Source: Candidatus Bathyarchaeota archaeon (GTDB taxonomy: Archaea > Thermoproteota > Bathyarchaeia > Bathyarchaeales > Bathycorpusculaceae). Taken from it: a DNA stretch of 64,000 bases. The stretch is taken from NCBI GenBank assembly GCA_963832745.1, contig CAWHVC010000003.1:224001-288000 (forward strand). Reading direction: 5' to 3'. Numbering within the stretch: position 1 is the first letter of the stretch; each line of letters opens with the position of its first letter. The notes beneath the pieces were generated by a model, which saw only the letters and a list, made by a program, of their open reading frames with translations, was not told the DNA's origin and did not search any database. Both the position numbers and the translations under genes were made by a program. Below, piece after piece: positions 35,750 through 52,645 of this stretch.

Positions 35750-37180
35750 TTGACAGACCAACCTTCACAAACCACTTTAAACGCCAACATCAAAATAGCA
35801 GGATACCTTGATCGAATTCAGCAACCCGTAATGGCTGTTGATAAAGACTTCAACATACTCTACATAAACCAGTACGGTGCAACATTGCTAAATTCAACAC
35901 CTCAACAACTACAAGGACAAAAATGTTACAGTCAATTCAAAACAGGCGATTGTAATACAGAAAAATGTGCCTGCAAAATCGCCATGCAAGAAAAGAAGGA
36001 AGCTACGTCCAAAACAGTTGCAAATCCGTCAGGCTTAGAATTGCCGATTCAATATACTGGGGCACCCTTGGTTGATGAAAACGGCAACGTAACTGGCGCA
36101 GTTGAAGTTGTAACAAACATTGCAGACTTAAAAAATGCGTTGGACATGATTAATGGAATATTAAAGGCTGCCTCAAGTGCTTCTCAAGAAGTGGAGGGTT
36201 ATGCAACTGAAGTTTTAAGCACCGCAGAAAACGTTGGTACAATGGCAGCTCAAGCCGCTGAAGCATCAGAGAAACTAAGGACCTCTTTAGAGCAGGTGCA
36301 ACAAGCAGCCGAAAATGTTTCCAGTGGAGCGCAGAGCCTTTCGACTCTTGCTCAAAGCACAGCAAGAAACATTGAAGTTCTTACCACAAAAATAACTGAT
36401 GTAGACAGGAAAACAAATGAAGTCAACGTTGTTGTAGCTGAATCAAACAAGTTGGCTAATCAGGTAAAGTCTGGCGGTGAACACGCTTTGTCAGCTTTAG
36501 GCGAAATAAAGAAGGCTTCCTTTGGCGTGCAAAACATTATTTCAGAAGTAAACTCGTCTGTAAACAACGTTGCAAGTTTAGCTGATGATATTTCACAAAT
36601 AGCTGGGCAAGTAAACATGCTTGCACTTAATGCTGCTATTGAAGCTGCAAGAGCAGGAGAAGCAGGACGAGGCTTTGCAGTAGTAGCTGACGCAGTAAAA
36701 CAGTTAGCAGGTCAAGCAGGCAAAGCAGCAAACACAGCAGTACACTCAATCGACGGCATAACCAAATCAGGCAAAAATGCGGCTGAAATGTCAAAAAATG
36801 CTGGCGAAGTAGCAAACAACGGTGACAGCATCGTTAGTCAAACAATAAATGGTTCCCAAAAGGTAGCAGAATCAATGGATAAAATCTTGAATATAACTCA
36901 AAATTTAACTGCTATCGTGCAAGGCAGCGCCAAATCTCTTGAAGACGTAAACCACGCAATAGAACAAGTTGCAAGCGTTTCTGAGGAATCTGCGTCAGCC
37001 GCTGAAGAAACAACCGCCAGCATTGAAGAACAAACTGCAGCCACAGACCAAGTTGCTTCAGTAAGCAAGAAACTGCAGAACGAAGGCGAAAAAGCCATTG
37101 AGATTGCCAGAAAAATAAACGCTTCAATTAAAAAGCTAAACGAGGAACTTTCTAAAGCTGAAGCAATGCAGCTCAACTAA
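35750..37180 (+). CDS. Cytoplasmic PAS-domain methyl-accepting chemotaxis protein
   Basis: Cys-rich PAS domain; QVNMLALNAAIEAARAGEAGRGFAVVA signalling hairpin; no TM. Confidence 0.92.
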   Translation: MTDQPSQTTLNANIKIAGYLDRIQQPVMAVDKDFNILYINQYGATLLNSTPQQLQGQKCYSQFKTGDCNTEKCACKIAMQEKKEATSKTVANPSGLELPIQYTGAPLVDENGNVTGAVEVVTNIADLKNALDMINGILKAASSASQEVEGYATEVLSTAENVGTMAAQAAEASEKLRTSLEQVQQAAENVSSGAQSLSTLAQSTARNIEVLTTKITDVDRKTNEVNVVVAESNKLANQVKSGGEHALSALGEIKKASFGVQNIISEVNSSVNNVASLADDISQIAGQVNMLALNAAIEAARAGEAGRGFAVVADAVKQLAGQAGKAANTAVHSIDGITKSGKNAAEMSKNAGEVANNGDSIVSQTINGSQKVAESMDKILNITQNLTAIVQGSAKSLEDVNHAIEQVASVSEESASAAEETTASIEEQTAATDQVASVSKKLQNEGEKAIEIARKINASIKKLNEELSKAEAMQLN

Positions 37181-37358
37181 ATTCAAGTTTCCGCCAACAT
37201 TTTTTATTCCGGTTCCTTTTTTGTCACGAAAGAACCATTATTTTCAAGTTTAGGCGGGACTCTTTTAATTATTAAGCCAAACAACGTTCAATTTAACGTC
37301 TGTTTCCGAAACGCTTATATTTTCTTGCCTATAACCAATTTCAAGGTTCGAAGCAAAA

Positions 37359-37433
37359 ATGATAAATCTTCACATTAACCCAAAAAGATTTCAAAGCTAC
37401 AGCTTCGAATACTGCTTTTATTATAACTTCTAA
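37359..37433 (+). CDS. Putative Phe/Tyr-rich leader peptide of the aromatic operon (MINLHINPKRFQSYSFEYCFYYNF)
   Basis: Manual translation; 4 Phe + 4 Tyr in the last 14 codons; downstream of TATA-like CTTATATT (37314-37321) and 63 nt upstream of the first gene. Confidence 0.8.
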   Translation: MINLHINPKRFQSYSFEYCFYYNF

Positions 37434-37437
37434 CAGT

Positions 37438-37478
37438 AGCCCAGAACTAACTAAAATTTTAAAGAAATGTTCTGGGCT
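37438..37478 (+). promoter_or_regulatory. Leader hairpin between leader-peptide stop and the aspartokinase SD
   Basis: Perfect 10-bp inverted repeat agcccagaac/gttctgggct, 4 nt after the leader TAA and 6 nt before GGGGGT. Confidence 0.7.
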
Positions 37479-37496
37479 GGCAAAGGGGGTAAAACG

Positions 37497-38741
37497 GTGG
37501 AAAATATAAAATCTGGCAAAAAAATTGTGGTTAAATTTGGCGGTTCAAGCCTTGCTGATCATGAAAAGCTACTGAAAGCTGTAATGGCTGTTGTTTCGGA
37601 AGCTAAACACGGTGTCAAAATCGCTGTTGTAGTTTCAGCTATGGGTAAAACTACTGATGTACTTATGACCACGGCTAAAAATACTTCAAACGGAAAACTA
37701 GCTAAACATGAATTGGATGACATTCTTTCTATGGGTGAACGCACAAGCGTACGCATCTTCGCTACTGCATTGCGGAACAATGGTGTTGACGCCTGCTACT
37801 TTGACCCCATGGAAGACAAGTGGCCAATAATCACTGATGAATCTTTCCAGAACGCTAACCCAATCGTTAAAGAATGCATCAAAAACATCAAAACCTGCGT
37901 TTTGCCGCTGGTTGAGAAAGGAACCATACCAGTAATTGCAGGTTTCGTAGGTAAAACTAAAGAAGGCAAAATTACCACTCTTGGCAGAGGCGGAAGTGAC
38001 ACCACAGCATTTATCCTTGGAGAAGGTATAGGCGCTGACCAAATCGTTCTTGTCACTGACGCGGATGGCATTATGTCAAGCGACCCCAAAATCATTAAGG
38101 CGCCTAAGCTTTTGCCAGAAATCAACGTTAATACCCTTATAGGTTTGGCTGATTCAGGAGCCAAATTTATCCACAGCAAAGCGCTTAAGTATAAACCGAA
38201 GGACATAGATGTTAAAGTTATGAGCAACAAGCATAACGACCTAAGCCAGCCAGGCACCCTAATTAAAGATGCATTAGCGTGGGAACTTGACGCTGAAATT
38301 GCTTATCCAACACCTGTTGCAGAGATAACGGTTATCGGAGAAGGCCTCTCAAGCAACACTAACATCATTACGGAAATGTTTGAAAAAGTCAGGCAGCAAA
38401 CTACACTGCTTGGCATGTCCATGAACTCAAATTCAATAATATTCTACGTAGCTCAAGAAAACAATATCGTGGAACTTTTCAACCAAATTCACCAAATCAC
38501 TATTGACAACAAAGAAACCATTGCAATGGCAGTCAAAAAAGACTTAGCTTTCATCCAAACCAGTGGTGTCGGTCTTGAAGAAACACGCGGTATCATCGGA
38601 AAAATCAGCGAAGACCTAAGACTTGCGGGCATCAACATTTCAGGCATCTTAACTATCACTTCCAGCATTTTACTGTTTGTAGATTGGAGCGAAAAAGAAA
38701 AAGCTCTAAAGCTCATTAAGACCTCATTAAAAACACACTAG
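37497..38741 (+). CDS. Aspartate kinase (aromatic-operon paralog)
   Basis: VVKFGGSS, LGRGGSDTTA, VTDADG, divergent ACT region; GTG start 6 nt after GGGGGT. Confidence 0.9.
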   Translation: MENIKSGKKIVVKFGGSSLADHEKLLKAVMAVVSEAKHGVKIAVVVSAMGKTTDVLMTTAKNTSNGKLAKHELDDILSMGERTSVRIFATALRNNGVDACYFDPMEDKWPIITDESFQNANPIVKECIKNIKTCVLPLVEKGTIPVIAGFVGKTKEGKITTLGRGGSDTTAFILGEGIGADQIVLVTDADGIMSSDPKIIKAPKLLPEINVNTLIGLADSGAKFIHSKALKYKPKDIDVKVMSNKHNDLSQPGTLIKDALAWELDAEIAYPTPVAEITVIGEGLSSNTNIITEMFEKVRQQTTLLGMSMNSNSIIFYVAQENNIVELFNQIHQITIDNKETIAMAVKKDLAFIQTSGVGLEETRGIIGKISEDLRLAGINISGILTITSSILLFVDWSEKEKALKLIKTSLKTH

Positions 38742-38745
38742 AGAG

Positions 38746-39546
38746 ATGGGATACTTGAATCAAGGCAAAACCAGGCGAATGAAACGAATCTTCCAGCAAG
38801 ATAACCGTACAGTAATTGTCCCAATGGACCACGGCGTAACCATCGGCCCAATCCAAGGCATCACCAACATGCAGCAAACAATAAACCAACTCGTTAAAGG
38901 TGGTGTTGACGCGGTTCTTGTTCACAAAGGCATCGCCAAAACTGTCGATACAACCGGCACCGGCTTAATCGTTATGCTCAGCGGCATGTCAAACCTTAGC
39001 CCAAACATAAACAATAAAGTTCAAGTCTGCAGCGTACAGGAAGCTATACGAATCGGCGCCGACGCAGTTTCCGTTCACGTTAACGTAGGTGCGCAAGATG
39101 AAGATAAAATGCTGCATAACTTGGGCAAAGTAGCTGAAGAATGCGACAGCTTTGGCATTCCTCTTCTTGCCATGATGTACCCGCGGGGACCAAGAATCGC
39201 AAATGAGCATGCACTTGAAGTAGTAGCCCACGCAGCCCGTATAGGTGCAGAACTCGGCGCAGATGTAATCAAAACTAACTACACGGGCACAATCGAATCA
39301 TTTAAGCAGGTTACTGAAAGTTGTCCAGCCCCAGTTCTAATCGCTGGTGGACCAAAATGCAAGTCCGTAGAGGAAATCTTGCAAACGACAAGTGACTCAA
39401 TCAAAGCAGGTGCAGCTGGACTCTCAATTGGACGCAATGTGTTTCAATGCGAAAATCAAGCATTAATCGTGAAGGCGCTCTCAGCTATCGTGCATAAAGG
39501 CGCATCTGTTGAGCAAGCCCAAAAAATTCTTGGTGAAAAACTTTGA
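38746..39546 (+). CDS. 2-amino-3,7-dideoxy-D-threo-hept-6-ulosonate (ADH) synthase, AroA' (class I aldolase family)
   Basis: VPMDHGV..GP, MMYPRG, ELGADVIKTNY, AGGPK, IGRNVFQ; directly before aroB'. Confidence 0.88.
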   Translation: MGYLNQGKTRRMKRIFQQDNRTVIVPMDHGVTIGPIQGITNMQQTINQLVKGGVDAVLVHKGIAKTVDTTGTGLIVMLSGMSNLSPNINNKVQVCSVQEAIRIGADAVSVHVNVGAQDEDKMLHNLGKVAEECDSFGIPLLAMMYPRGPRIANEHALEVVAHAARIGAELGADVIKTNYTGTIESFKQVTESCPAPVLIAGGPKCKSVEEILQTTSDSIKAGAAGLSIGRNVFQCENQALIVKALSAIVHKGASVEQAQKILGEKL

Positions 39547-40556
39547 AAGAGCTCTGGATAGAAACAGGTAAGATAGATGCTTTATCCAACCTCATAAAGA
39601 AGTACTGTGATGTTGTAGTTGAAGGCGACAAAGCTTCTTTTTTGGCTACAATACAAGAACAAACCGTTTTGTCCCCAACTGTTGAGTCTTTCGAGGAATT
39701 AGATGTTAAAGGCAAAGTTCTACGTATCTGCATAAGCGATAAGACAACTGAAAACTTGATTGTTAAAGCCGCAGAAAAAGGCGCAAGTTACATACTTATC
39801 AGCACCGCAAACTGGCGAGTTATTCCACTAGAGAATCTCATTGCCCGCATTAAGGGTAAAAGCAAACTTATCGCTGAAGTAACCAACGCTGAAGAGGCAA
39901 AAGTTGCACTTGAAACCTTGGAACTTGGCACCGACGGCGTGCTGCTAAAAACTTCTGACCCAGATGAGGTCTTAAAAACCGTTGTAGTTGTTAAGCCTGA
40001 AGCTTTGAAACTTGAAATGGCGGTTGCCAAAATCATTTCTACTAAGCCCATAAGCAATGGTGCACGCGTTTGTGTTGATACCTGCGATTTGATGATTCAG
40101 GGCGAGGGTATGCTGGTTGGCAGTCAAAGTGCGGGATTGTTTTTGGTGGAAGCTGAAGTTAACGAGAACCCGTATGTTGCGTCGCGTCCTTTCCGTGTTA
40201 ACGCTGGTTCCTGTTCAATGTACACATTGGGCAACCTCCAAACTACGCGGTACCTTCAAGAATTTAAGGCAGGCGACGAAGTGGTCATTGTTAATCGTGA
40301 GGGTAAAACACGCAGGGGAAATGTGGGTAGAATAAAAATTGAAATCCGCCCCTTAATCCTCGTGGAAGCGCTGGTTGAAGGTAAACTAATCAAAACTATT
40401 CTGCAGAACGCTGAAACTATCCGTGTGGTTACTCCTAAATCGTCTAAACCAGTCACCGAACTTAAAGAGGGCGACGAAGTCATAGTCCACTTAGCAGCAA
40501 AAGGGGGCAGGCACTTCGGCGTCAGCGTACCCGACGAAACGGTGATTGAAAAGTGA
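39543..40556 (+). CDS. 3-dehydroquinate synthase II (AroB')
   Basis: WRVIPLENLIA, RVCVDTC, RPFRVNAG, LQNAETIR, GRHFG. Confidence 0.93.
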   Translation: MKELWIETGKIDALSNLIKKYCDVVVEGDKASFLATIQEQTVLSPTVESFEELDVKGKVLRICISDKTTENLIVKAAEKGASYILISTANWRVIPLENLIARIKGKSKLIAEVTNAEEAKVALETLELGTDGVLLKTSDPDEVLKTVVVVKPEALKLEMAVAKIISTKPISNGARVCVDTCDLMIQGEGMLVGSQSAGLFLVEAEVNENPYVASRPFRVNAGSCSMYTLGNLQTTRYLQEFKAGDEVVIVNREGKTRRGNVGRIKIEIRPLILVEALVEGKLIKTILQNAETIRVVTPKSSKPVTELKEGDEVIVHLAAKGGRHFGVSVPDETVIEK

Positions 40557-41233
40557 CCCCCAAAATTTGCGTGTCCATAAAACCCAAAACCACAATTGAA
40601 GCATGTAGCCTAATCAAGAAAGCTGAAAACGCAAAAGCCGACTTCATTGAGGTCCGCTTTGACAACCTAGAGGAAACCCGCAGGTTTGAAGAAATTTCAA
40701 GCGCAACAAAAATCCCGCTTATTGCCGCAAATAAGCTGCCAAGCGAAGGCGGCAACTTTTCAGGCACCCACAATCAACGTTGGGAAACTTTGGTTTACGC
40801 TGCAAAAAGCGGTTTCCAATATGTCGATTTGGATCTAACAAACCTCAAGCTAAAAGAGAACATTATAGACTTGAAAGAGTTGGGGGTTAAAACTATTGTT
40901 TCATTCCACAGGTTTAGCGACGCTTTTACAGTTCAAGAAATGCAACGCATTTTAAATGAACAAATAAGTAGCGGGGCAGATGTATGCAAAATCATTGGTA
41001 CCGCAAAACAGGTACAAGATAACCTGACTGCACTTAATTTCGTTTCTGAAAACGCGGTTAAAACCAAGCTTGTGTGCTTCTGCATGGGTGAACAGGGCAG
41101 AATTTCGAGGCTTCTTTCGCCAGTTTTTGGGGCATTCTTCACTTTTGCATCTCTGGAAGAAGGTAGCGAGACGGCACCTGGACAAATAAGCATAAAAGAA
41201 ATGAGGACTGCCTACTCTTTATTGAGGCAGTAA
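40553..41233 (+). CDS. aroD: Type I 3-dehydroquinate dehydratase
   Basis: EVRFD, VSFH, GADVCK, CMGEQGRISR, APGQ. Confidence 0.92.
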   Translation: MTPKICVSIKPKTTIEACSLIKKAENAKADFIEVRFDNLEETRRFEEISSATKIPLIAANKLPSEGGNFSGTHNQRWETLVYAAKSGFQYVDLDLTNLKLKENIIDLKELGVKTIVSFHRFSDAFTVQEMQRILNEQISSGADVCKIIGTAKQVQDNLTALNFVSENAVKTKLVCFCMGEQGRISRLLSPVFGAFFTFASLEEGSETAPGQISIKEMRTAYSLLRQ

Positions 41234-41235
41234 CC

Positions 41236-42093
41236 TTGGCTATTTCCGCTAAAACACGTGTTTGCGCAGTTATCGGTGACCCAATAGAGCATTCGCTAAG
41301 TCCAACAATTCAAAATGCAGCGTTTGACGCGTTGGGGCTTGATTTTGTTTATACAGCTTTCAGGGTGAAGTCGTCTATGGTTGCAAACGCTTTAGCTGGA
41401 GTGCGGGCTCTTGGCATTATCGGTTTGAATGTTACTATGCCGCATAAAGAAGCAATTATACCGCAGTTAGATGGGATAGATGAAACAGCCCAATTCCTAA
41501 ATTCAGTAAACACCATCCACAACAAGGATGGCAAACTGTTCGGGTACAGCACCGACGGCATAGGCGCCCTTAACGCGCTTAAAGAGAACGGTTCTGACCC
41601 AAAGGGTAAACAAGTGCTTATGCTTGGTTCAGGCGGAGCCGCAAGAGCAATTGCGTACACGCTTGTCCAAGAAACAGATGAACTTGTTGTTCTTAACCGA
41701 ACAGTTTCAGAAGCCAAAGAATTAGCGGAAACATTAAAACAAAAATTTAACAAAAAAGTCATTGCAGATTCACTCTCACCAGAAGTAATAAAAGAAAAAA
41801 TCTGCGATTCGGACATTCTGATTAACGCAACTTCTGTCGGGATGAAACCTAACTTAGCCCAAAGTTTAATTGCACAAAACAGCTTAAAATCTGACTTGAC
41901 CGTAATGGACATAGTTTACAATCCAGTTGAAACAAAACTTGTTATCGAAGCCAAAGCTGCGGGTGCCAAGGTAGTAAGCGGCGTAGAAATGTTAATTTAT
42001 CAAGGTGCTGCATCTTTTGAAATCTGGACTGGAAAGCAGGCTCCGGTCCAGGTTATGAGAAAAGCCGCGTTTGAACAGTTAATTAGGATGTAA
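41236..42093 (+). CDS. aroE: Shikimate dehydrogenase
   Basis: IGDPIEHSLSP, NVTMPHK, GSGGAAR, NATSVGM, DIVYNP. Confidence 0.96.
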   Translation: MAISAKTRVCAVIGDPIEHSLSPTIQNAAFDALGLDFVYTAFRVKSSMVANALAGVRALGIIGLNVTMPHKEAIIPQLDGIDETAQFLNSVNTIHNKDGKLFGYSTDGIGALNALKENGSDPKGKQVLMLGSGGAARAIAYTLVQETDELVVLNRTVSEAKELAETLKQKFNKKVIADSLSPEVIKEKICDSDILINATSVGMKPNLAQSLIAQNSLKSDLTVMDIVYNPVETKLVIEAKAAGAKVVSGVEMLIYQGAASFEIWTGKQAPVQVMRKAAFEQLIRM

Positions 42094-42099
42094 ATTGTA

Positions 42100-42972
42100 G
42101 TGAAGGGAGAAGCTTTAGCGTTATCTCATGGTGCAGCAACAATCGTTAACGCCATAGCCACTGGTAAAGGGGCAGCATTCGGCGTTGACTTATACACTAA
42201 AGCACAAGTAAAACTAACCAGTGAACCGCAGGTTTTTGAATCCGAAATTACTTCAGACCAAAAAGAGAATCCAGTTTTGATACAAAAAACCGTTCAAGCA
42301 GTCCTCAAATGCTTCGGCAAAGAGAAAGAGTTTGGCGCAAAAGTCAAAACATGGAGCAACATCCCAATTGCTAGAGGACTTAAAAGCAGTAGCACAGCAG
42401 CCAACGCAGTAGCCCTCGCAACCCTTGGCGCTCTTGGCGAGACGCTGGAGGATTTGGAAACTGTAAAGCTGGGTGTACAGGCAGCTTTTGAGGCAAAGGT
42501 TACGGTTACAGGCGCTTTTGATGATGCTTGTGCCTCATTCTTTGGAGGCTTGGTAGTTACAGATAACCTGAACTGCAAACTTGTCAAGCAAGAAACCTTG
42601 ACTGAGGACTATGTAGTTCTGTTTCAGGTGCCCCCCAAAAAAGCCTACACCGTAAACACTGACATCAGCAAGCTTGCAGCGCTTAAGCCGCAGATTGAAG
42701 CAGCATACGACATGACACTGAAAGGTCTCCATTGGGAAGCTTTAACACTTAACGGATTAAGCTACTCGGCTGCTCTTGGTTTTAACTGCAAAGTCGCAGT
42801 TGACGCTTTAGCTGCGGGTGCACGGGCAGCAGGCTTGTGCGGTAAAGGACCAACAATCACTGCCGTCGTCTCCAAAGACCGCATTGAGCAAGTTAGGGCT
42901 GCTTGGCAGGATTATGAAGGGGAAATTTTACAAGCAAGTTTAAACCATGACAAAGCTAAGGTACTCGTATAA
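42100..42972 (+). CDS. aroK: Archaeal (GHMP) shikimate kinase
   Basis: GAATIVNAIATGKGAA, PIARGLKSSS, VTGAFDDA. Confidence 0.94.
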   Translation: MKGEALALSHGAATIVNAIATGKGAAFGVDLYTKAQVKLTSEPQVFESEITSDQKENPVLIQKTVQAVLKCFGKEKEFGAKVKTWSNIPIARGLKSSSTAANAVALATLGALGETLEDLETVKLGVQAAFEAKVTVTGAFDDACASFFGGLVVTDNLNCKLVKQETLTEDYVVLFQVPPKKAYTVNTDISKLAALKPQIEAAYDMTLKGLHWEALTLNGLSYSAALGFNCKVAVDALAAGARAAGLCGKGPTITAVVSKDRIEQVRAAWQDYEGEILQASLNHDKAKVLV

Positions 42973-44276
42973 TGGTCACCGTAACCGTTAAACCCACAAG
43001 CAAACTTCAAGGCACCCTTTGCGCGCCTTCGTCAAAATCTTACACACAACGTATGCTTATAGCAGCGGCGCTTTCACAAGGTACAGGAAAAGTTTCAAAC
43101 CCGCTTTTGTCAGAAGACACTGAAGCAACTTTTAGGGCTATAACAGCTTTAGGTGCCCAAGTACAAAAAGCAGCAGGTTGCTGGAATGTTCAAGGAGCAG
43201 AAGAGCTCAAAGCAGCCAGCGACTTAATTGATGTAGGCGAATCAGGTGCAACCTTGCGGTTTATGATTCCCATCGCGGCACTGGCGTCTGGGCGTTCAGC
43301 GTTTCTGTTGTCGAGTTCTTTGGAAAAAAGGCCAATTGAGCCGCTTCTTTCCAGCCTAAAACAGCTTGGAGTTAACGCTTATCATAAACAGATTGGGGAC
43401 TTTCCAGTAATCGTGGTGGAAGGGAGCGGCTTAGCTGGAGGAAGAACCAGTATCTCAGGTGATGTCAGTAGCCAATTTATCAGCGGCTTAATGTTTGCTT
43501 GCCCAATGGCTAAGGCTGACACGGAGATAACTGTTACAACACCATTAGAATCCAAAGATTACGTAAAAATGACCCAAGAAGTGCTTGCCCAACATCACGT
43601 TGAAGTGCAAATCAGCGACGATTTCCGCCACATCCACATTCCGGGGAGGCAGATTTTCAAGCAGGTTAACTGCAAAGTACCCGGCGACTTTTCCTCAGCG
43701 GCTTTTCTTTTGGCAGCAGCAGCCATCACCAAGTCAAATGTAAAAATAAACAACCTGACCTACGAGACAGCGCAGGGTGACCGTGCAATTTTGGGTGTTC
43801 TTAAGCATATGGGTGTTGAAGGCAAAGTCTGCGAGGACAGCGTAGAAATTCAAGGCACTGGCGGCTTGCTTAAGGCGGTTGATATTGACGCAAAGAATAT
43901 TCCTGATCTAGTACCGATTTGCACGGTTTTGGCTTGCTATTCTGATGGCGAGTCGAGGATTTTTAATGCTCAGCGTTTGCGGTTTAAGGAGTCTGACCGT
44001 TTAGCCACTGTCCACGAGGAGTTAACAAGAATGGGAGCTGAAATCAGCATGGACGAATCGAGCTTAACTATCAAGGGACCTTGCAAACTACACGGCGCAA
44101 CCATCAACCCGCACAATGACCACCGAATCGCCATGTCCACTGCCGTAGCCGCGCTTCGAGCCACTGACGAAACCATAATTGAAAACGCTGAGTGCGTCAG
44201 AAAGTCTTATCCAGCATTCTACACTGATTTAGAAGCATTAGGAGCGGAAATCGTTGGCGGGAAACTCGTTAGGTAA
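42972..44276 (+). CDS. aroA: EPSP synthase
   Basis: PSSKSYTQR, GESGATLR, SSQFISGL, RFKESDRL, DHRIAM. Confidence 0.96.
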   Translation: MVTVTVKPTSKLQGTLCAPSSKSYTQRMLIAAALSQGTGKVSNPLLSEDTEATFRAITALGAQVQKAAGCWNVQGAEELKAASDLIDVGESGATLRFMIPIAALASGRSAFLLSSSLEKRPIEPLLSSLKQLGVNAYHKQIGDFPVIVVEGSGLAGGRTSISGDVSSQFISGLMFACPMAKADTEITVTTPLESKDYVKMTQEVLAQHHVEVQISDDFRHIHIPGRQIFKQVNCKVPGDFSSAAFLLAAAAITKSNVKINNLTYETAQGDRAILGVLKHMGVEGKVCEDSVEIQGTGGLLKAVDIDAKNIPDLVPICTVLACYSDGESRIFNAQRLRFKESDRLATVHEELTRMGAEISMDESSLTIKGPCKLHGATINPHNDHRIAMSTAVAALRATDETIIENAECVRKSYPAFYTDLEALGAEIVGGKLVR

Positions 44277-45357
44277 AGAATTCATTGTAACAACGTTTGG
44301 GGAAAGCCACGGCAAAATCGTCGGCGTATTAATCGATGGCTGCCCAGCAGGGCTTGCGCTTTCGGAAGAGGATTTTCAGGAAGAACTTGACCGTAGAATC
44401 CCAGCAGAGCCCAAGATTGTTTCAGCCCGAGTCGAAAAAGACACAGCTAAGATTCTTAGCGGAGTGTTTAACGGCAAAACCACAGGTGCCCCCATAGCAA
44501 TTACAGTAGATAATAAAGAAACCAAATCCAGCGATTACGATGACATTAAGGACTTGCCAAGACCTGGGCACTCAGATTACCCAGCCCGCATAAGGTATGG
44601 CGGCTTTAACGATTACCGAGGCGGCGGAAGATTCTCTGGAAGAGTCACAGTTGCTCTCATACTTGCAGGAGTCATAGCTAAGAAATTGCTCGGCAGATAC
44701 AACATTGACGTTTTAGCCTACACAGCGGCAATAGGCAAAATCAAGTCCGAAACCCGATTTAATGCCTTGGAAATTCGCAAAAACCGCAACGCCGCAGCCA
44801 CGCGATGCCCTGATTTGGCGTGTGCTGAGAAAATGGAGGAAGCAATTGTTGCAGCCAGAAATGCTGGCGATAGTCTGGGCGGGATAGTTGAGTGCGCCGT
44901 GCTTAACATGCCTGTGGGAATTGGGGAACCGTTGTTTGACGCGTTGGACGCCGATTTAGCTAAGGCACTGTTTGGAGTTTCCGCAGTTAAAGGTGTCGAG
45001 TTTGGAGCTGGATTTGCGGCAGCGGAAATGTTGGGTTCCCGAAATAACGATGCATTCAGATTAAAGAATGGGAAAGTTGAGGCAGTGACAGATAACGCTG
45101 GTGGCATCTTGGGCGGCATAAGCAGTGGTATGCCAATCACGATGCGGGTAGCAATTAAACCTACACCATCAATTAGCAAGGAGCAGAAAACCGTTAACCT
45201 ATGTACAATGCAAGACACCACGTTAAGCGTAAAAGGCCGACATGACCCATGCATAGTGCCTAAAGCAGTGCCAGCCATTGAATCCGTGGTCGCTTTAACT
45301 TTGGTTGACCATCTGATTCGCGCAGGCTATGTCCCAAAAATCCTCAAGGAGCAGTAA
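44254..45357 (+). CDS. aroC: Chorismate synthase
   Basis: TFGESHG, RPGHSD, RGGGRFSGR, GRHDPC. Confidence 0.97.
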   Translation: MAGNSLGKEFIVTTFGESHGKIVGVLIDGCPAGLALSEEDFQEELDRRIPAEPKIVSARVEKDTAKILSGVFNGKTTGAPIAITVDNKETKSSDYDDIKDLPRPGHSDYPARIRYGGFNDYRGGGRFSGRVTVALILAGVIAKKLLGRYNIDVLAYTAAIGKIKSETRFNALEIRKNRNAAATRCPDLACAEKMEEAIVAARNAGDSLGGIVECAVLNMPVGIGEPLFDALDADLAKALFGVSAVKGVEFGAGFAAAEMLGSRNNDAFRLKNGKVEAVTDNAGGILGGISSGMPITMRVAIKPTPSISKEQKTVNLCTMQDTTLSVKGRHDPCIVPKAVPAIESVVALTLVDHLIRAGYVPKILKEQ

Positions 45358-45359
45358 AA

Positions 45360-45620
45360 ATGGAAGATTTGCAGACATTGCGTAAACGTGTCGACGAAAT
45401 TGACGAAAAAATTCTAAAAGCATTAAGTGAACGTGTTGAAGTCTGCAGGCAGATTGGCGAAGTTAAAAAGCAGCAGGGTCTGCCGGTGCGTGACCAATCC
45501 AGAGAAACCAAAGTTTACAGTAAAGTCAAAGAGAAAGCGGCCAATTTTCAGTTGGAACCCTCCCAAATTGAGGCGGTTTACCGCGAAATAGTTAATATGT
45601 GCAGTGCAGTTCAAAAATAG
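45360..45620 (+). CDS. Chorismate mutase (AroQ type)
   Basis: LRKRVDEIDEKILKALSER...IGEVK...PVRDQSRE. Confidence 0.92.
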   Translation: MEDLQTLRKRVDEIDEKILKALSERVEVCRQIGEVKKQQGLPVRDQSRETKVYSKVKEKAANFQLEPSQIEAVYREIVNMCSAVQK

Positions 45621-45651
45621 AAAGTAACTCTTAACGGAGAGTCATCTCACC

Positions 45652-46731
45652 TTGTTGTATGAAATAAATGAGAAAGCACTCAAACTTGAAAGTGAAGGAA
45701 AAAAGATAATCCGACTAAACCTCGGCGACCCAGACATGGCTACGCCCCCTGAAATCGTAGAAGCAGCATACGCTTCAATGAAAGCAGGCAAAACCAAGTA
45801 TTCATCATCTTACGGCGAGCTAAAACTACGTCAAAAAATCGCTGAGTTACACGGCGTTAAAGTAGAAAACGTTGTCATAACACCCGGTTCAAAATGGGCT
45901 ATTTTCAGCACCATGTTCTTAACCATGAAGAACGGCGGCAACGTAATCATCCCAACACCATACTGGACAGCTTACGATTTAATCGCAAAAAGCATCGGCG
46001 CTCAAACCAAACTACTTAAAACAGAAATGGAAACAGGCTGGAAAGTTGACTTAGAAAAACTTGAAAACCTAATTGACAATGAAACAAAAATGATTATCCT
46101 CAACAACCCAAACAATCCAACAAGCAAAGTCATGGATGACGAAACCCTTGACGGCATTGTTGAAATCGCCAACAAAAAAGGCGTCACCATACTCTCTGAC
46201 GAGGTTTACGGTGCAATCGCTTTTAAAAAGACCAAAAGCATCCTTGACTACGACAAAGAATGCAAACACATCCTTTCAAACGGGTTCAGTAAAACCTTTA
46301 CCATGACTGGTTGGCGTATCGGCTACATAGTTGCAAACAAAATGCTCGTTGACAAAGTAACCAAACTAAACCAAATCACCTTCAACAACGTACCAGTCTT
46401 TATTCAAGATGCAGCCATGAAAGGCTTAGAACTCCGCGAACGAATTGCAGAAAACATCAAAGCAAAATACAAACAACGTGCAGACCTTGCAAGCAAAAAA
46501 CTTTCAGCGGCAGGCTTCAAATTCACAACGCCAGAAGCACCATTCTATGTGTTTCCCAAACGTGACGGCTTAGACGGCGACAAATTTACGCTAAACCTGC
46601 TTGACAGCGGCGTAGCAGTTGCTCCAGGTTCAAGCTTTGGCGACTACCATGAACATTTCCGCATAAGCTTAACTGCACCAGACGACCAAATAGAAACAGC
46701 ACTAGACAAAATCGGTGAGGCAGCTCAGTAA
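45652..46731 (+). CDS. Class I/II PLP aminotransferase (probably aromatic/aspartate)
   Basis: NNPNNPT, SDEVY, GFSKTFTMTGWRIGY; within the aromatic operon. Confidence 0.9.
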   Translation: MLYEINEKALKLESEGKKIIRLNLGDPDMATPPEIVEAAYASMKAGKTKYSSSYGELKLRQKIAELHGVKVENVVITPGSKWAIFSTMFLTMKNGGNVIIPTPYWTAYDLIAKSIGAQTKLLKTEMETGWKVDLEKLENLIDNETKMIILNNPNNPTSKVMDDETLDGIVEIANKKGVTILSDEVYGAIAFKKTKSILDYDKECKHILSNGFSKTFTMTGWRIGYIVANKMLVDKVTKLNQITFNNVPVFIQDAAMKGLELRERIAENIKAKYKQRADLASKKLSAAGFKFTTPEAPFYVFPKRDGLDGDKFTLNLLDSGVAVAPGSSFGDYHEHFRISLTAPDDQIETALDKIGEAAQ

Positions 46732-46733
46732 AA

Positions 46734-47609
46734 ATGAGGACAGCCATTCTTGGCGCGGGAAAGATGGGCGTTTGGTTCGCTCGGTTCTGTAAAGGGAAAG
46801 GCGACACCGTGGTCCTTGCTGACCGTAAAGCTGAGAAACTGGCTAAACTCCGAACTGAGTTGCAAGTTGAAACAACCACAGATTTTGTTGAAGCAGTAAA
46901 GGGCGCCGATAACGTCCTAATCTGCACTTCCATATCTTCTTTTGAAGAAATAATTAAAAAAATCGCTCCTACAACCCATAAGGGGCAAGCAGTCATGGAT
47001 ATTTGCTCTGTTAAAGAGTACCCTGTTAACATTATGCATCAATATATTAAAGACGCAACCGTGCTTGGCACGCACCCAGTTTTTGGTCCAGGCAGCAACG
47101 GCGTAGCCCACAAAGCCTACGTTTTAACGCCTACTAATCCACAAGAAGAAGCCTTCGCGGAACGATACAAACTGTGGCTCGAAAAAGAAGGCGCCAACGT
47201 TTTCATCATGTCACCTCAGAAACATGACGAACTTATGTCTATCATTTTGGGTTTGCCACACTTTGTTGGGTTAGTTGCCTGCGAAACCTTGCTGGAGCAG
47301 TCAAGTTTTGCTGAATCCAAAAAGCTCGCTGGAACCACTTACCGCATGCTTTTAACACTTGCAGAAGCGACCGCACAAGAAACCCCAGACCTTTACGCTA
47401 ACGTACAAACCAAACTGGGAGACTTGGGCAAAATGGAGGAACTCTTCATCGAAAACGCGCAGGCGTGGCTTGATTTGATGAAAAACAAAGATCAGGCGGG
47501 CATTGTTGAGCGCATGGCTAAGCTGCGTGCTAAACTCGACAAAGTAGACGGCGATTACGCGAAAAGCTACCAGACTATGTATAAGATGCTGGAATCCACC
47601 GAGTCTTAA
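46734..47609 (+). CDS. tyrA: Prephenate dehydrogenase
   Basis: GAGKMG, DICSVK, THPVFGP, HDELMS...LPH. Confidence 0.93.
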   Translation: MRTAILGAGKMGVWFARFCKGKGDTVVLADRKAEKLAKLRTELQVETTTDFVEAVKGADNVLICTSISSFEEIIKKIAPTTHKGQAVMDICSVKEYPVNIMHQYIKDATVLGTHPVFGPGSNGVAHKAYVLTPTNPQEEAFAERYKLWLEKEGANVFIMSPQKHDELMSIILGLPHFVGLVACETLLEQSSFAESKKLAGTTYRMLLTLAEATAQETPDLYANVQTKLGDLGKMEELFIENAQAWLDLMKNKDQAGIVERMAKLRAKLDKVDGDYAKSYQTMYKMLESTES

Positions 47610-47710: not shown

Positions 47711-48724
47711 TTGAAGAAAATAGAGGTTATCGTCAATCAGGAACAGGCAGGTACGGTTGAGAGGGTGTTTAACGAGTTAGGAATCCTCTATTTTTCTTCA
47801 GAAGTAAAAATCAACCTTAAAACTCAAGCGTACTATTCAGCTTCGTTGCCTGATGAGTTTTCTGAAAAAGTCATGAACAAAATTTCTGAAGCGCTAAACC
47901 TTGACGAAAAAGAAAATTTTGTAATGATAAGCGAAATTGAAGGATTTAGTTCAAAATATTTAGATGAACTTGAAGAAAAAGCTGGCAAAGAAGGCTCCAC
48001 CCCAAATCCAACCGAGGCATTGGTAGAAAGAACCGACCGCTATACACACTTAACCAAAGATATTGTAGCCCTAACGCTTCTAACAACCTTGGTGGCGTTG
48101 GCAGGGCTACTTTTGGATAACGTAGTTATTTTAATTGGAGCCATGATATTGGCGCCGCTCATTGGTCCCATAACCGCTTTAGCCATCAACACAAATTTGG
48201 GACGCCCAAAGAAACTGCTTCATAGCCAAACAAACGTACTTGCCCTGTTAGGTATGATTGTTTTGTTATCTGCGTTTACAACTTTTGTCATTGCTCAATT
48301 CGCGACTGTACCCTCAAGCACAATACAAATTGCAATACGAACCCACGTAAGCATCCTAGACGTGTTTATTGCCTTGGTTATTGGTTTTGCTGCGGGGTTA
48401 GCGTTTAGAGTAGAGTTGCCTGAGTATCTTTTCGGGGTAGCCATTGCGGCAGCACTTGTTCCACCTGCAGCCGTTGCGGGCATCGAATTGGCATTCCTTA
48501 ATCAAGCGTCTTTTATGAACGCTTTACTTTTGATGCTTGTCTACACGTTTGGGTTAGAATTTGGTTGTACTTTGACGTTGAGGATTATGGGTGTTTCGCC
48601 GCGTAACTTTTTTGAAAAAAGGGAAGCCAGAAAACCCACACTTTACTCTATCACGTTTCTTGCAGTGCTACTTGCTGTTCTGATTATTTTTATACTGCTA
48701 TCTCCTTTGGGACCAACCAGTTAA
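47711..48724 (+). CDS. TIGR00341/DUF389 membrane protein
   Basis: IGAMILAPLIGPI, GVAIAAALVPP. Confidence 0.85.
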   Translation: MKKIEVIVNQEQAGTVERVFNELGILYFSSEVKINLKTQAYYSASLPDEFSEKVMNKISEALNLDEKENFVMISEIEGFSSKYLDELEEKAGKEGSTPNPTEALVERTDRYTHLTKDIVALTLLTTLVALAGLLLDNVVILIGAMILAPLIGPITALAINTNLGRPKKLLHSQTNVLALLGMIVLLSAFTTFVIAQFATVPSSTIQIAIRTHVSILDVFIALVIGFAAGLAFRVELPEYLFGVAIAAALVPPAAVAGIELAFLNQASFMNALLLMLVYTFGLEFGCTLTLRIMGVSPRNFFEKREARKPTLYSITFLAVLLAVLIIFILLSPLGPTS

Positions 48725-49276: not shown

Positions 49277-50089
49277 TTAGATGATTCTTGGGTAAGACCC
49301 TAGAATCTTAACGAAAGTAGCATATTTTTCCAGCGCTTGCAGGGCTTCTGTGCAGCGTTTTTCTGTTCTGTGTCCTTCGAAGTCGAGGTAAAAATTGTAT
49401 TGCCAAGCGGTGGTTTTGGTTGGTCGGGATTCGATGCGTGTTAGGTTAATGTTTCTGGATGCGAATTCGCCTAGGGCATGATATAGGGTTCCGGGCGCGT
49501 GTTTGGCGCTGAAGATTATGCTGGTTTTGTCGTCTCCTGTTGGAGCTGCGTCTTCTTTTGAAAGTACAAGGAAGCGGGTGTAGTTGGATGGGTTGTCGGC
49601 GATGTCTCGGGCTACGATTTTCATGTTGTAGAGGTCTGCGGCTTTTTCGCTGGCGATTGCTGCTGCGTTAAAGAGAGCTTTTTCTTTTATCATTTTCACG
49701 CTGCCAGCGGTGTCGTAAGCTGGAATGATTTCCCATTTGTGCTTTTCAAGGTAACTGCGGCATTGACCAAGCGCTTGAGGATGGGAATAAACTGATTCGA
49801 TGTCTTCAAACTTTGTTTGAGGATTAGCGATTAAGACATGGGCGAGTTTGACGGCGACTTCTCCGCACACTTTAAGGTCATACGCTAAGAAAAGGTCATA
49901 GTTTTGGTTGACGCTACCCTCGATTGAGTTTTCAATCGGCACAACACCATTGGGAACTGCGCCGGTGTTTACGGATTCAAAGACGTCTCGGAAATCCTTA
50001 CAGGGCACAGGCTCTATTTTGCTGCCGAAAAATTTGTAGACAGCCATTTCGCTGTAAGCGCCAGTTTCTCCCTGATAGGTTACTTTCAT
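49277..50089 (-). CDS. pheA: Prephenate dehydratase
   Basis: YQGETGAYSE, PIENSIEGSV, SHPQALGQC, NYTRF, ESRP, LGSY. Confidence 0.96.
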   Translation of the reverse strand: MKVTYQGETGAYSEMAVYKFFGSKIEPVPCKDFRDVFESVNTGAVPNGVVPIENSIEGSVNQNYDLFLAYDLKVCGEVAVKLAHVLIANPQTKFEDIESVYSHPQALGQCRSYLEKHKWEIIPAYDTAGSVKMIKEKALFNAAAIASEKAADLYNMKIVARDIADNPSNYTRFLVLSKEDAAPTGDDKTSIIFSAKHAPGTLYHALGEFASRNINLTRIESRPTKTTAWQYNFYLDFEGHRTEKRCTEALQALEKYATFVKILGSYPRII

Positions 50090-51615
50090 TGTTTCTTGAC
50101 CTGATTACGATTCTTTAGTAGGCACTTGTTTATACCGTTTATCATAGCTTCCACGGACGCCATTACGATGTCTTCACGGGCTGCACGGGCGGATACGATG
50201 TTTCCTTTTTCGTCTTCAACTTTTATGATTACTTCAGCCACTGCGTTAGATCCACCAGTGATTGCTTCGAGACGATATTCGCTTAGCTTTATTTTTTCAA
50301 GGTTGCTTGTTAGCTTCTGTATGGCTTTTAGGACGGCGTCTACTGGGCCTACGCCGGTTTCTGCTGCCACGTACTCTTTGCCGTCCAAGGTTAAGCGTAC
50401 GGAAGCGGTTGGGATAACTTTGATGCCGGTTACGACGGCCATGTCGCATAGGTCAACAATTTTTTCTTCACCGAGGACCTCACCCATAACTGCTGAGGTT
50501 AAAGCGATTAAGTCAGCGTCGGTTACCATTTTGCCTTTGTCACCGAGTTCTTTGACGCGTTGCACGATTTCGGTTAATTGTTGCTCGGTTGGGTGGATGC
50601 CAATTTCGTTTAGTTCTGCTTGGATGCCTCTTGTGCCTGCCAGTTTGCCTGCGACGAGTTTGCGGGTTCTTCCGACTAGTTCGGGGCTGATTGGTTCAAA
50701 CGTTAAGGGCTGCTCTGTGACGCCGCGGGTGTGGATGCCTGATTCGTGGGCAAACGCGTTTTCTCCAACAATTGCTTTGTTTACTTGTACTGAGACGCCG
50801 CTTAATGATGCAACCATCCTAGATGTGCTGTACAGTAAACGCGTGTTTACGTTTGTTTTGTACCCGTAAACCACATGCAAGGTTGTTACTACTTCTTCGA
50901 GCGCCGCGTTGCCTGCACGTTCACCGAGCCCGTTGACGGCGACGTGAACTTGGTCTGCGCCTGCTTCAACTGCTGCAAGGCTGTTGGCAACTGCTAAACC
51001 AAAGTCGTTGTGACAGTGAGCGCTAATTGGAACCTTAATGTAACTCTTTAGCTCCTTGAAAAACTCAAAAGTTGTTCTGGGTATCATGCAGCCGACTGTA
51101 TCTGGCGTGTTTAGGCTGTCCATTCCTGCATCTTGGGCTGCCAAGCAGATTTGACGTAGAAAAGACGCTTCGGTGCGGGTGGCATCCATGGGTGAGAATT
51201 CACATTTTACGCCATGCTTCTTAACGTACTGGATTGAATCAACTGCCGCAGATAGGACTTGTTCCGGAGTCATGTTTACAGCGTGTTTCATCTGCACTGG
51301 TGAAGTTGGGATGAATACGTGAATCAAATCTACATTGCATTCTAAGGCGGCGTCGATATCTTTTCTTGTACATCTGGATAAAGCACAAACTTTTGAGTTT
51401 AGGCCTAATTTGGAGATTTCTTTTACGACTTTACGTTCGCCCTCTGAACTACTGGGAAAACCTGCTTCTATAATGTCGACGCCAAGCTTGTTTAGTTGCT
51501 GGGCGATTTCGATTTTATCTTCCAGAGTCAAAGAAACACCGGGGGTTTGTTCCCCGTCACGTAGTGTCGTGTCTAAGATTTTGATAAATCGGGGGTTTTG
51601 AGTCATTGTTTTCAC
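50086..51615 (-). CDS. leuA: 2-isopropylmalate synthase
   Basis: [26 protein letters not shown]-terminal regulatory domain; in the leu operon. Confidence 0.88.
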   Translation of the reverse strand: MKTMTQNPRFIKILDTTLRDGEQTPGVSLTLEDKIEIAQQLNKLGVDIIEAGFPSSSEGERKVVKEISKLGLNSKVCALSRCTRKDIDAALECNVDLIHVFIPTSPVQMKHAVNMTPEQVLSAAVDSIQYVKKHGVKCEFSPMDATRTEASFLRQICLAAQDAGMDSLNTPDTVGCMIPRTTFEFFKELKSYIKVPISAHCHNDFGLAVANSLAAVEAGADQVHVAVNGLGERAGNAALEEVVTTLHVVYGYKTNVNTRLLYSTSRMVASLSGVSVQVNKAIVGENAFAHESGIHTRGVTEQPLTFEPISPELVGRTRKLVAGKLAGTRGIQAELNEIGIHPTEQQLTEIVQRVKELGDKGKMVTDADLIALTSAVMGEVLGEEKIVDLCDMAVVTGIKVIPTASVRLTLDGKEYVAAETGVGPVDAVLKAIQKLTSNLEKIKLSEYRLEAITGGSNAVAEVIIKVEDEKGNIVSARAAREDIVMASVEAMINGINKCLLKNRNQVKKQ

Positions 51616-51619
51616 AAGC

Positions 51620-52645
51620 TTAAGCTTTTAGCGCTGCAGCAATGGCTTGTGCCATCTGCATTGTAGAGGCTTTGCCGCCTAAATCTGGAACGGTAACGCC
51701 GTTAACCAATGTTTGGACTGTAGCGTTTTCTATTGCCGCAGCTGCCTTTAAGCATTTAGAATCATTAAACCGTTCACCCAGCCAATCCAGCATCATCTTT
51801 GCGGACAGTATCATGGATATGGGGTTTGCGATATGCTTACCAGCAATGTCAGGAGCTGAACCATGAATAGGTTCAAACAATGCAAAGTTATCGCCGATGT
51901 TTGCGCCTGGAGCCATGCCCAGACCGCCGATTAACTGCGCTGCCTCGTCACTTAGGATGTCACCGAACATGTTACACGTGCATAGCACGTCGAAGTCTTG
52001 GGGAGTTCGGATAAGGTGCATTGTCGCTGCGTCAACATACATTTCATTGTATTTGATATCTGGATATTTTTCTGCAGTTTCTTGACAGACTTTTTTGAAT
52101 AAGCCGTCGGTTACACGCATGACGTTTGCTTTATGAATTGCTGTTACTTTCTTTTTAGGGCGCAGTCTTGCGGTTTCAAACGCGCGTTTGGCGATGCGTT
52201 CACAGTTTTGCCTTGAAATTACTCGTAAGCACACGGTTACGTCGTTGCCGATTGTGTATTCTAAGCCTTTGTAGACGTCTTCAGTGTTTTCGCGTACGAA
52301 AATCATGTCTATGTCTGGGCGGGCAACTGGCACGTTTGGAAACGCCTTTAATGGGCGCACGTTAGCGTACAAGTCAAACAGCAAGCGTAATCGGACTATA
52401 ACGTCTGCTGCGGTTTCGCCTACTGGACCTTTCAGGCAAGCGTGTGATTCACGAATAACTTTTAGGCTATCCTCTGGCAGGGCGGCACCACGTTTTTTGA
52501 GCACTGCATCGCCTGCTTCAGCTTTGACTAAGTTGAGGTTTACGCCAAAGTTTTCTTGCACTACATCTATTATTTTCAAGGTTGCTTCAGTTAACTCGGG
52601 TCCGATGCCATCGCCGGGCATTAAGGCGATTTTGTATTCGGTCAT
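51620..52645 (-). CDS. leuB: 3-isopropylmalate dehydrogenase (isocitrate/IPM family)
   Basis: GDGIGPE, RENTE, HKANV, NMFGDILSD, EPIHGSAPD. Confidence 0.9.
   Translation of the reverse strand: MTEYKIALMPGDGIGPELTEATLKIIDVVQENFGVNLNLVKAEAGDAVLKKRGAALPEDSLKVIRESHACLKGPVGETAADVIVRLRLLFDLYANVRPLKAFPNVPVARPDIDMIFVRENTEDVYKGLEYTIGNDVTVCLRVISRQNCERIAKRAFETARLRPKKKVTAIHKANVMRVTDGLFKKVCQETAEKYPDIKYNEMYVDAATMHLIRTPQDFDVLCTCNMFGDILSDEAAQLIGGLGMAPGANIGDNFALFEPIHGSAPDIAGKHIANPISMILSAKMMLDWLGERFNDSKCLKAAAAIENATVQTLVNGVTVPDLGGKASTMQMAQAIAAALKA

Follow-up and report, generated by a model that had tools for sequence, protein, structure and literature searches.

A Phe/Tyr-rich leader ORF and a stop-abutting hairpin precede the aromatic amino-acid operon of Bathyarchaeia and may form a ribosome-mediated attenuator

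Can the progress of an archaeal ribosome through a short leader peptide set the expression of the biosynthetic operon that follows? The question arises from a locus in a 64,000-nt stretch of DNA of a Candidatus Bathyarchaeota archaeon (assembly GCA_963832745.1, contig CAWHVC010000003.1, positions 224,001 to 288,000), here called the window; its genome is G000, and L-numbers denote individual ask leader loci. In this window, a spacer of 316 nt separates an MCP-like gene (end 37180) from ask, the aspartate kinase gene that heads an aromatic amino-acid operon. An earlier note on this DNA had pointed to a Phe/Tyr-rich open reading frame (ORF) and a hairpin in the spacer, and had proposed that ribosome speed on the Phe/Tyr codons controls the operon, through either a translational mechanism or an archaeal termination factor. 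Leader-peptide attenuation, which requires hairpin terminators and transcription coupled to translation, is a textbook mechanism of bacteria; to our knowledge no archaeal amino-acid attenuator is known. We consider it reasonably probable that positions 37345–37496 are the 5′ leader of the ask–aro mRNA and act as a ribosome-mediated attenuator with a hairpin-independent OFF branch.

The leader ORF occupies 37359–37433 on the + strand, from ATG to TAA, as the earlier note had it. It consists of 24 codons plus the stop (37431–37433) and encodes MINLHINPKRFQSYSFEYCFYYNF; 8 of its last 14 codons specify Phe or Tyr and none specifies Trp. The Phe/Tyr tract, Y S F E Y C F Y Y N F, spans 37398–37430 (+). 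Judged within G000 alone, this composition is only suggestive. A composition scan found at least seven Phe/Tyr among the last 14 codons in 10 of 4213 small intergenic ATG ORFs, and the 10 genes checked downstream of ORFs from that scan included no amino-acid biosynthesis gene. The scan yielded no function-matched leader among 1148 small ORFs near gene starts of this genome. These numbers are what speaks for chance, that is, for an AT-rich spacer that happens to hold a Phe/Tyr-rich ORF and a hairpin: such ORFs do occur, and the other high-composition ones precede no matching pathway.

A comparison across Bathyarchaeia addressed the matter. Loci were assigned to an ‘aro-type’ class when their ask was at least 45% identical to that of the window, and the leader played no part in choosing them. 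One script counted Phe and Tyr over the 14 final codons of each locus's best upstream ORF; 17 other loci (dapB-linked ask paralogues and outgroup ask loci) served as controls. When the ask protein was used to query 41 related genomes, orthologues (73–91% identity) turned up in G000 and in 23 of the 24 other members of its genus, the lone exception, without an aro-type ask, being a genome that is 65% complete (G021). One further orthologue, of 57% identity, came from another family. All 25 loci of this search share the same arrangement, and the three ATG columns are invariant. In these loci, the first half of the ORF varies in sequence and length but stays open, while the second half reads SF[DE]Y[YGC]FYY and so on; the stop is followed directly by GCCCAGAAC, a loop of 12–21 nt, GTTCTGGGC, and then the Shine–Dalgarno (SD) element and the start codon. 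In a G+C-rich family (4 genomes), the leaders include MKGRREPMQTFKTPFFGRFGYFGY and MIYESQPLNMFTMPFFGSFGYFGYRG, and their nucleotide sequence is unrelated to that of the window. A third family, of 60 genomes, has the leader MNSHSTTSTTSWHFYSFGYFYYN and many variants of it; this ask is found in 38 of the 60, the remaining 22 having no match at E ≤ 1e-60.

A wider scan, in which a single genome stood for each species and the query was an alignment of nine ask proteins, gave 80 loci. The leader was present at all 69 of the Bathyarchaeia type (46–91% ask identity; the records include Candidatus Bathycorpusculum and Bathyarchaeum) and at none of the 11 from Hadarchaeales, Jordarchaeia or Methanobacteriota (37–40% identity); the earlier note had been correct in its guess of Bathyarchaeia. 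Removal of duplicates left 108 unique aro-type loci, which represent at least three families plus deeper Bathyarchaeia. Every one of the 108 scores five or more on this count, and 98 score seven or more (score 5 in 2 loci, 6 in 8, 7 in 37, 8 in 37, 9 in 14 and 10 in 10). None of the 17 controls reached five, the maximum being four. The gene aroA′ lies directly 3′ of ask in 92 of the 108 aro-type loci and in none of the controls. Two loci cut by contig ends (L031, L061) retain the tract and stop and miss the start. L071, in whose stretch tblastn found no ask, stands outside the counts, and a fragmented copy in G095 and a second copy in G058 were left out of the sample. The contrast of 108/108 with 0/17, the occurrence of the ORF in G+C-rich genomes, its frame specificity, and a hairpin with z < –2 in 97 of 103 leaders (see below) make a chance origin vanishingly improbable; judging by these comparative sequence data, we regard it as already refuted.

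Where the aromatic codons lie, and in which frame, is equally regular. Over 107 leaders, the fraction of Phe plus Tyr is 0.53–0.92 at codons –2 to –10, 0.2–0.3 at –11 to –14, and close to zero beyond –17. Position –2 holds the final Phe/Tyr codon of 80 leaders, position –1 that of 25 and position –3 that of 2, and the last sense codon is mostly Asn (30/107) or Pro (24/107). Nearly all of the ORFs have 22–29 codons, and 105 of 107 begin with ATG. The Phe/Tyr fraction is 0.556 in frame versus 0.108 and 0.128 in the other two frames, which average 1.2 and 2.1 stops. Despite unrelated nucleotide sequences, the Phe/Tyr codons are kept in G+C-rich lineages. Trp occurs within the last 16 codons of 34 of the 107 leaders, and many aro leaders of other families have a Trp codon at –12. 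Tract position, frame specificity and a free N-terminal half are together the signature of a leader peptide selected for its codons, not for its peptide sequence. The ORF is presumably translated and, from its pattern of conservation, very likely serves as a codon-sensing leader peptide.

The same tract could in principle belong to an arrest peptide, which would sense free Phe or Tyr in the exit tunnel, as TnaC-like peptides do, and stall at or near the stop, tRNA charging playing no part. Within families the C-terminal motif is indeed kept (SFDYYFYY..FP, FYSFSYFFYN), the codon directly before the stop is often Pro or Asn at the frequencies given above, and a ribosome that halts at the stop would prevent the hairpin from closing. 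Between families, however, Phe/Tyr content persists and no motif does (PFFGRFGYFGY, RFFFKRYYYY, FFDFFYYYFYFE), as codon sensing predicts, and the N-terminal half is unconstrained. We thus find an arrest peptide very unlikely.

The second constant element is the hairpin, P2. In the window, its 5′ arm (TAGCCCAGAAC, 37437–37447, +) starts 3 nt after the leader stop, its loop of 21 nt (37448–37468, +) contains TTTT at 37457–37460, and its 3′ arm (GTTCTGGGCTG, 37469–37479, +) ends 17 nt before the ask start. The perfect 10-bp stem (37438–37447/37469–37478) recognized in the earlier note is present, and ViennaRNA lengthens it to 11 bp via U37437–G37479. The leader RNA as a whole (171 nt) folds with –39.3 kcal/mol (z = –3.95), and none of 200 shuffles folds equally well. 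Its minimum free energy (MFE) fold consists of two helices, P2 and an upstream helix, P1 (37346–37354/37402–37410).

Structure statistics were compiled for 103 leaders, five others (L064, L121, L131, L144 and L149) being excluded for a wrong automatic ask start. The segment from stop to SD has z < –2 relative to dinucleotide shuffles in 97 leaders, with a median z of –3.84. P2 abuts the stop: counted from the end of that codon, its first paired base is at –4 to 0 nt in 95 leaders, and its 3′ end is 15–24 nt before the ask start in 90 (18–19 nt in 56). A core, GCCCAG/CTGGGC, is common to most lineages, with CTGGG invariant in all 87 aligned leaders. Almost every change in the core is a 5′-arm transition, C-to-U or A-to-G, that preserves a G–U pair on the + strand (GU/UG in 16 cells, 1 break). 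Deep lineages have other stems at the same place (GGAGAAACCG/CGGTTTCTCC, GGGCTGAAACGG/CCGTTTTAGCC, or purine-rich/pyrimidine-rich arms), and 67 distinct P2 stems were seen in total. The one-strand wobble pattern and a loop length that varies from 12 to 21 nt even within the genus suggest that P2 is conserved as RNA. A DNA operator is disfavoured by that wobble pattern and by the variable spacer. MAFFT/RNAalifold, applied to 87 and to 33 P2 regions, recovered only 5–6 pairs because inner stems misalign, so column pairs from per-sequence folds were then imposed and counted. In the 33-sequence alignment, 92.5% of cells pair, versus at most 69% with the partners slid; since the imposed structures derive from the same sequences, such counts lean towards pairing.

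Conservation of this kind might be unrelated to sensing. The region could encode an aromatic micro-protein, form an mRNA-stabilising 5′ structure, or carry a protein site on the GCCCAG/CTGGGC stem, and a sequence-specific binder would explain why the core is so unusually conserved, with few compensatory changes. A role of this type sits poorly with the quite different stems that deep lineages have at the same place, with the variable loop length and wobble-only substitutions on one strand, and with a tract composition that matches the pathway product. Moreover, neither a micro-protein nor an operator needs strict abutment of stop and hairpin. Overall, we view an explanation of this type as unlikely.

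How would a ribosome on the leader ORF affect P2? While it decodes Phe/Tyr, the ribosome would extend no further than the stop codon and P2 would be intact; with the stop in the A site, two codons on, the P2 5′ arm would have to open. This geometry of tract, stop and hairpin puts P2 in the position of the 2:3 antiterminator of bacterial leaders, and tips the balance slightly towards folded P2 as the ON state. Other roles for P2 were considered and rejected. Were P2 a terminator (OFF), a ribosome stalled on the tract would leave it intact, and starvation would shut a biosynthetic operon. Direct melting of P2 by a stalled ribosome is ruled out by the geometry, the last Phe/Tyr codon being at –2 in 80 of 107 leaders. 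Termination–reinitiation bridged by P2 was discarded as well: a ribosome at the stop holds the 5′ arm inside.

We also looked for further pairings. Pairing of the P2 3′ arm with downstream sequence (3:4) is at shuffle level (z < –2 in 1/103), and 3:4 or SD pairing of this arm was dismissed on that basis. Nor do the leaders have the shape of an intrinsic terminator: in the 12 nt that follow P2, no T-run exceeds 4, and one of 4 is seen in only 7 of 103. The remark that the window has no classical stem plus long U-run therefore holds, the 3′ arm having no conserved downstream partner. Without a region 4 partner for the P2 3′ arm, the OFF branch must be hairpin-independent. In some lineages, the tract pairs strongly with the 5′ arm of P2 in the classical 1:2 manner (L150, z = –4.9; L143, z = –3.0), and leaders of one group, termed f7-like, form a median of 12 cross pairs; as a general feature 1:2 pairing was rejected (z < –2 in 2/103).

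In the genus of the window, it is the presumed 5′ end of the mRNA with which the first tract codons, AGC TTC GAA/GAC, pair. The P1 5′ arm (GTTCGAAGC, 37346–37354, +) probably sits at the extreme 5′ end of the transcript; 4 nt separate it from the leader ATG, and in the MFE fold it pairs with the tract codons at 37402–37410. The pairing of TTCGAAGC (37347–37354) with GCTTCGAA (37402–37409), also named in the earlier note, is part of this helix. The segment GGTTCGAAGC (37345–37354) is conserved in the genus, and RNAalifold keeps 5 P1 pairs, one of them with a compensatory change. Speculatively, P1 may restrict the leader to the pioneer round of translation. As a general feature, P1 was not retained (z < –2 in 15/101). 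Judged from these sequences, the wiring changes from lineage to lineage; what stays constant is the ORF, a hairpin that abuts the stop, and the distance between hairpin and SD.

What, then, could the output be? The hairpin-independent OFF branch agrees with archaeal U-tract termination via aCPSF1. In archaea, U-tracts bring about termination with no need of a hairpin, and they are bound by the KH domains of aCPSF1 (PMC8716108); mutual exclusion of FttA and the ribosome on the polymerase has been hypothesised (PMC11616081). G000 has an aCPSF1 orthologue (TIGR03675 match, 907 bits). T-runs of at least 4 occur between stop and SD in 71 of 103 leaders, versus 21.1 ± 3.8 expected, and T-runs of at least 5 in 49, versus 6.7 ± 2.3 expected. 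This is an enrichment of 3- to 7-fold, and most runs are mid-hairpin. The U content of the 3′ half exceeds that of the 5′ half in 96 of the 103 leaders, and the 5′ half is purine/A-rich. These features suggest U-tract/aCPSF1 termination as a possible, if doubtful, OFF route.

A codon-sensing leader might instead have a translational output, with P2 or its freed 3′ arm governing access of the 30S subunit to the ask SD. Such a device would resemble ermC/cat and the mycobacterial poly-Cys short ORFs, and its effect would extend over the operon through translational coupling and polarity. The short and fixed distance from P2 to the ask start (15–24 nt in 90/103) suits this proposal, as do the many overlapping genes of the operon and, in the G+C-rich family, a 3′ arm that is pyrimidine-rich and anti-SD-like beside GGAGGTG. 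Moreover, with a ribosome late in the tract, the opening energy of the SD region drops from 6.0 to 3.8 kcal/mol in the window and in the median of the genus-like group. In other groups, however, there is no consistent shift (f7-like, 6.3 versus 5.8–6.2; deep, 7.2 versus 8.0–8.3), and SD masking was not retained as a general output on account of this inconsistency. The SD lies outside P2, and at least 4 pairs of the 3′ arm with the SD or start codon are seen in only 22 of 103 leaders, which is the shuffle level. P2 ends just beyond the usual footprint of an initiating ribosome and so should not block the SD, and at steady state it refolds whenever the stop is unoccupied. Because a stalled ribosome leaves P2 closed, the logic of a biosynthetic operon is hard to obtain translationally. 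On balance, a translational output appears rather unlikely.

On the observed anatomy, conservation, frame specificity and geometry of the leader, the attenuator that we favour, with its hairpin-independent OFF branch, would work as follows. It would sense how much charged tRNA-Phe and tRNA-Tyr (and, in some lineages, tRNA-Trp) is available. A ribosome would initiate on the nearly leaderless 24-codon ORF. When Phe- or Tyr-tRNA is scarce, it would be held somewhere between codons –10 and –2, and its leading edge would not quite reach the hairpin; the P2 5′ arm would be left free, P2 would fold once its 3′ arm is transcribed, and the operon would be ON. Folded P2 would protect the transcript until a ribosome loads on ask. 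When the supply is good, the ribosome would arrive at the stop and cover the P2 5′ arm, so that no P2 forms while RNA polymerase advances. The unfolded state would present an unpaired, U-rich 3′ half with its U-tract, leading to termination before a ribosome loads on ask, either by intrinsic termination at oligo-U or via aCPSF1/FttA. The T-run may also pause the polymerase and thereby synchronise it with the ribosome.

Several observations weigh against this reading. The window itself has TTTT only. In the MFE fold, the U-tract is at least half paired in only 31 of 79 leaders and fully unpaired in 35; since it lies mostly in the loop, masking of the U-tract by P2 is poorly supported. P2 is also the ground state once the ribosome leaves, so the model needs a kinetic, co-transcriptional decision. 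Neither P1 nor 1:2 pairing has statistical support across the class, the latter being overall at shuffle level. The high sequence conservation of the stems leaves little formal covariation: compensatory change was seen at 2 of 15 pairs in the 33-sequence alignment, and covariation never rose above shuffles in the 87-sequence MAFFT alignment. Of the covarying stems anticipated in the earlier note, the hairpin itself is thus kept, and base-pair covariation is at best slight. Moreover, the sequences share ancestry, so the counts overstate independence.

A comparable leader was also missing at every other amino-acid operon of G000 that was examined (trp, and those covered by the composition scan), so the attenuation system, if it is one, is a lone one. 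The trp operon has no Trp-rich leader, the sole small ORF upstream being MRNCLWRTNAQNNTNN, with one Trp, and pheA has no leader of its own. A loose pattern search of G000 for a second copy of the hairpin core returned chance matches only, besides the leader. The trp operon (C2:191697–197322, within C2:191697–197600 of G000, –) consists of six consecutive ORFs, of which trpE is confirmed (PF00425) and the names trpG, trpD, trpC, trpB and trpA are assumed. Taking both sides together, the idea that a Phe/Tyr leader and a hairpin let ribosome speed control the operon is supported by the comparative test.

Upstream of the leader, a predicted promoter block (CCGAAACGCTTATATTTT, 37306–37323, +) combines a transcription factor B recognition element (BRE)-like CGAAA with the TATA box TTATAT (37315–37320). 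The latter lies within the TATA-like CTTATATT reported before at 37314–37321. The block is near-invariant across 24 same-genus loci. Among 84 leaders with a recognisable hexamer, the TATA-like hexamer starts 40–51 nt 5′ of the leader ATG in 79. The usual archaeal spacing from TATA box to transcription start is about 25 nt, so transcription would start near 37343–37347 if the block functions as a promoter. On the other side of P2, the ask ribosome-binding site, GGGGGT (37485–37490), is followed by the start codon GTG 37497 (feature 37485–37499, +). Orthologues have GGGTG or GGAGG 5–9 nt 5′ of an ATG at the position aligned with this GTG. The longest ask ORF (424 aa) opens at an in-frame ATG at 37467–37469, within the P2 hairpin. 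Judging from the orthologues, the true start is the SD-preceded codon that matches GTG 37497; automatic annotation may therefore extend ask by 10 codons and bury the hairpin in the coding sequence.

The operon (37497–47609, +) comprises the 11 genes that had been listed for it, as NCBIfam matches confirm: ask, aroA′ (ADH synthase), aroB′ (DHQ synthase II), aroD, aroE, archaeal aroK, aroA, aroC, and the genes for chorismate mutase, an aminotransferase and prephenate dehydrogenase. Several adjacent genes overlap or abut. Because the archaeal aroA′/aroB′ route begins with aspartate semialdehyde, an aspartate kinase at the head of an aro operon makes sense. Gene order in deep lineages is leader–ask–asd–aroA′ or leader–ask–aroB′–aroD. 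In L139, L141, L143 and L145, asd follows ask behind a Phe/Tyr leader, with aroA′ next in L143 and L145; the entire supply of aspartate semialdehyde for the aromatic pathway would be under the leader there. The operon of the window has no asd. At five loci (L102, L121, L124, L090 and L094), the leader and an ask of 67–90% identity occur in metagenome-assembled genomes titled Methanocella, Sulfotelmatobacter, Nanoarchaeia, Thermoproteota and Nitrososphaerota, which are probably mis-binned or mislabelled.

After the operon and a gap of 101 nt comes a gene for a TIGR00341-family membrane protein of unassigned function (47711–48724, +). The prephenate dehydratase gene, pheA (PF00800; 49277–50089, –), lies outside the aro operon and convergent to it, and closes a cluster of genes on the minus strand. 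The start of pheA and the end of a 509-aa gene (50086–51615, –) share 4 nt; the latter gene resembles, by eye, isopropylmalate/citramalate synthase. It is preceded by a 341-aa gene (51620–52645, –) that resembles, again by eye, isopropylmalate dehydrogenase. Given this placement, Phe synthesis would be co-expressed with a Leu/Ile-type operon. Elsewhere in G000, on the minus strand of contig C3 (reverse-strand 794953–795049), a small ORF with extreme Glu/Trp repeats, MVEVKMRMLMYRIEEDEEWEEGEDEEWEEEEW, lies 159 nt 5′ of a gene.

In its broadest form, our proposal is that the leader is the first archaeal ribosome-mediated amino-acid attenuator, ancestral to Bathyarchaeia, whose leader-peptide-controlled hairpin is a pure anti-terminator against U-tract/aCPSF1 (FttA) termination. 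We put this forward tentatively. If true, transcription–translation coupling would serve metabolite sensing in archaea, and the logic of attenuation would have been rebuilt on a eukaryote-like termination system. The leader offers a class-wide, sequence-diverse natural system for asking whether archaeal ribosomes and RNA polymerase communicate, and a route to the regulation of aCPSF1/FttA or oligo-U termination. It bears on the control of aromatic amino acids made via the aspartate-semialdehyde (DKFP) route in uncultured Bathyarchaeia and, as a compact part of about 150 nt, is testable in tractable archaea. It also illustrates that archaeal genome annotation misses small upstream ORFs.

How does the leader compare with known systems? 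Bacterial attenuators of trp, phe, his, leu and thr operons (for pheL, the part of PMC3082878 available) likewise place before a biosynthetic operon a short ORF whose cognate codons cluster towards the C terminus, and a hairpin (2:3) right after the stop that forms only with the ribosome held on the control codons. Their pairing of the tract with the 5′ arm of that hairpin (1:2) has a possible counterpart in some lineages here. Bacterial leaders have a 3:4 terminator hairpin and U-run, whereas the leader of Bathyarchaeia has no 3:4 and its U-run lies within or on the 3′ side of the hairpin. It differs further in its archaeal host, in a tract that in the window's family pairs with the mRNA 5′ end (P1) and not with region 2, and in a hairpin that ends at a fixed 15–24 nt from the first gene's start codon. 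An Rfam cmscan of 36500–38500, with E up to 10, gave four weak matches to unrelated families and none to the Phe, Trp, His, Leu or Thr leader families. In mycobacteria, the leaderless poly-Cys short ORFs of cysteine-responsive attenuators, as described in the accessible part of bioRxiv 10.1101/834739, similarly combine a minimal 5′ UTR (untranslated region) with a first cistron rich in one codon before a biosynthetic operon, although in another domain of life and for another amino acid.

Translational attenuation of the ermC type, in which a ribosome stalled on an upstream ORF (uORF) chooses between mRNA folds beside a downstream SD, is also akin to the leader. As outlined in the excerpt of PMC10219788, the stall opens an SD-hiding hairpin in ermC, whereas here the SD is outside the hairpin and a stalled ribosome leaves the hairpin intact. 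Archaeal termination at U-tracts by aCPSF1 (FttA) is hairpin-free in the available parts of PMC8716108 and PMC11616081; the leader has an enriched U-tract and the genome an aCPSF1 gene, so this termination may operate here by analogy. Those same parts contained no case in which such termination is switched by a leader peptide and hairpin. That uORFs act in all domains of life is the subject of one general sentence in the portion of PMC10219788 seen. A search of full-text literature found bacterial cases only, with no archaeal amino-acid leader peptide and nothing on Bathyarchaeia; paywalled work lay outside it, and absence there is no proof. Set beside these systems, the leader uses a sensing principle known from bacteria; its likely novelty lies in an archaeal host, in the lack of a terminator hairpin and in the probable output.

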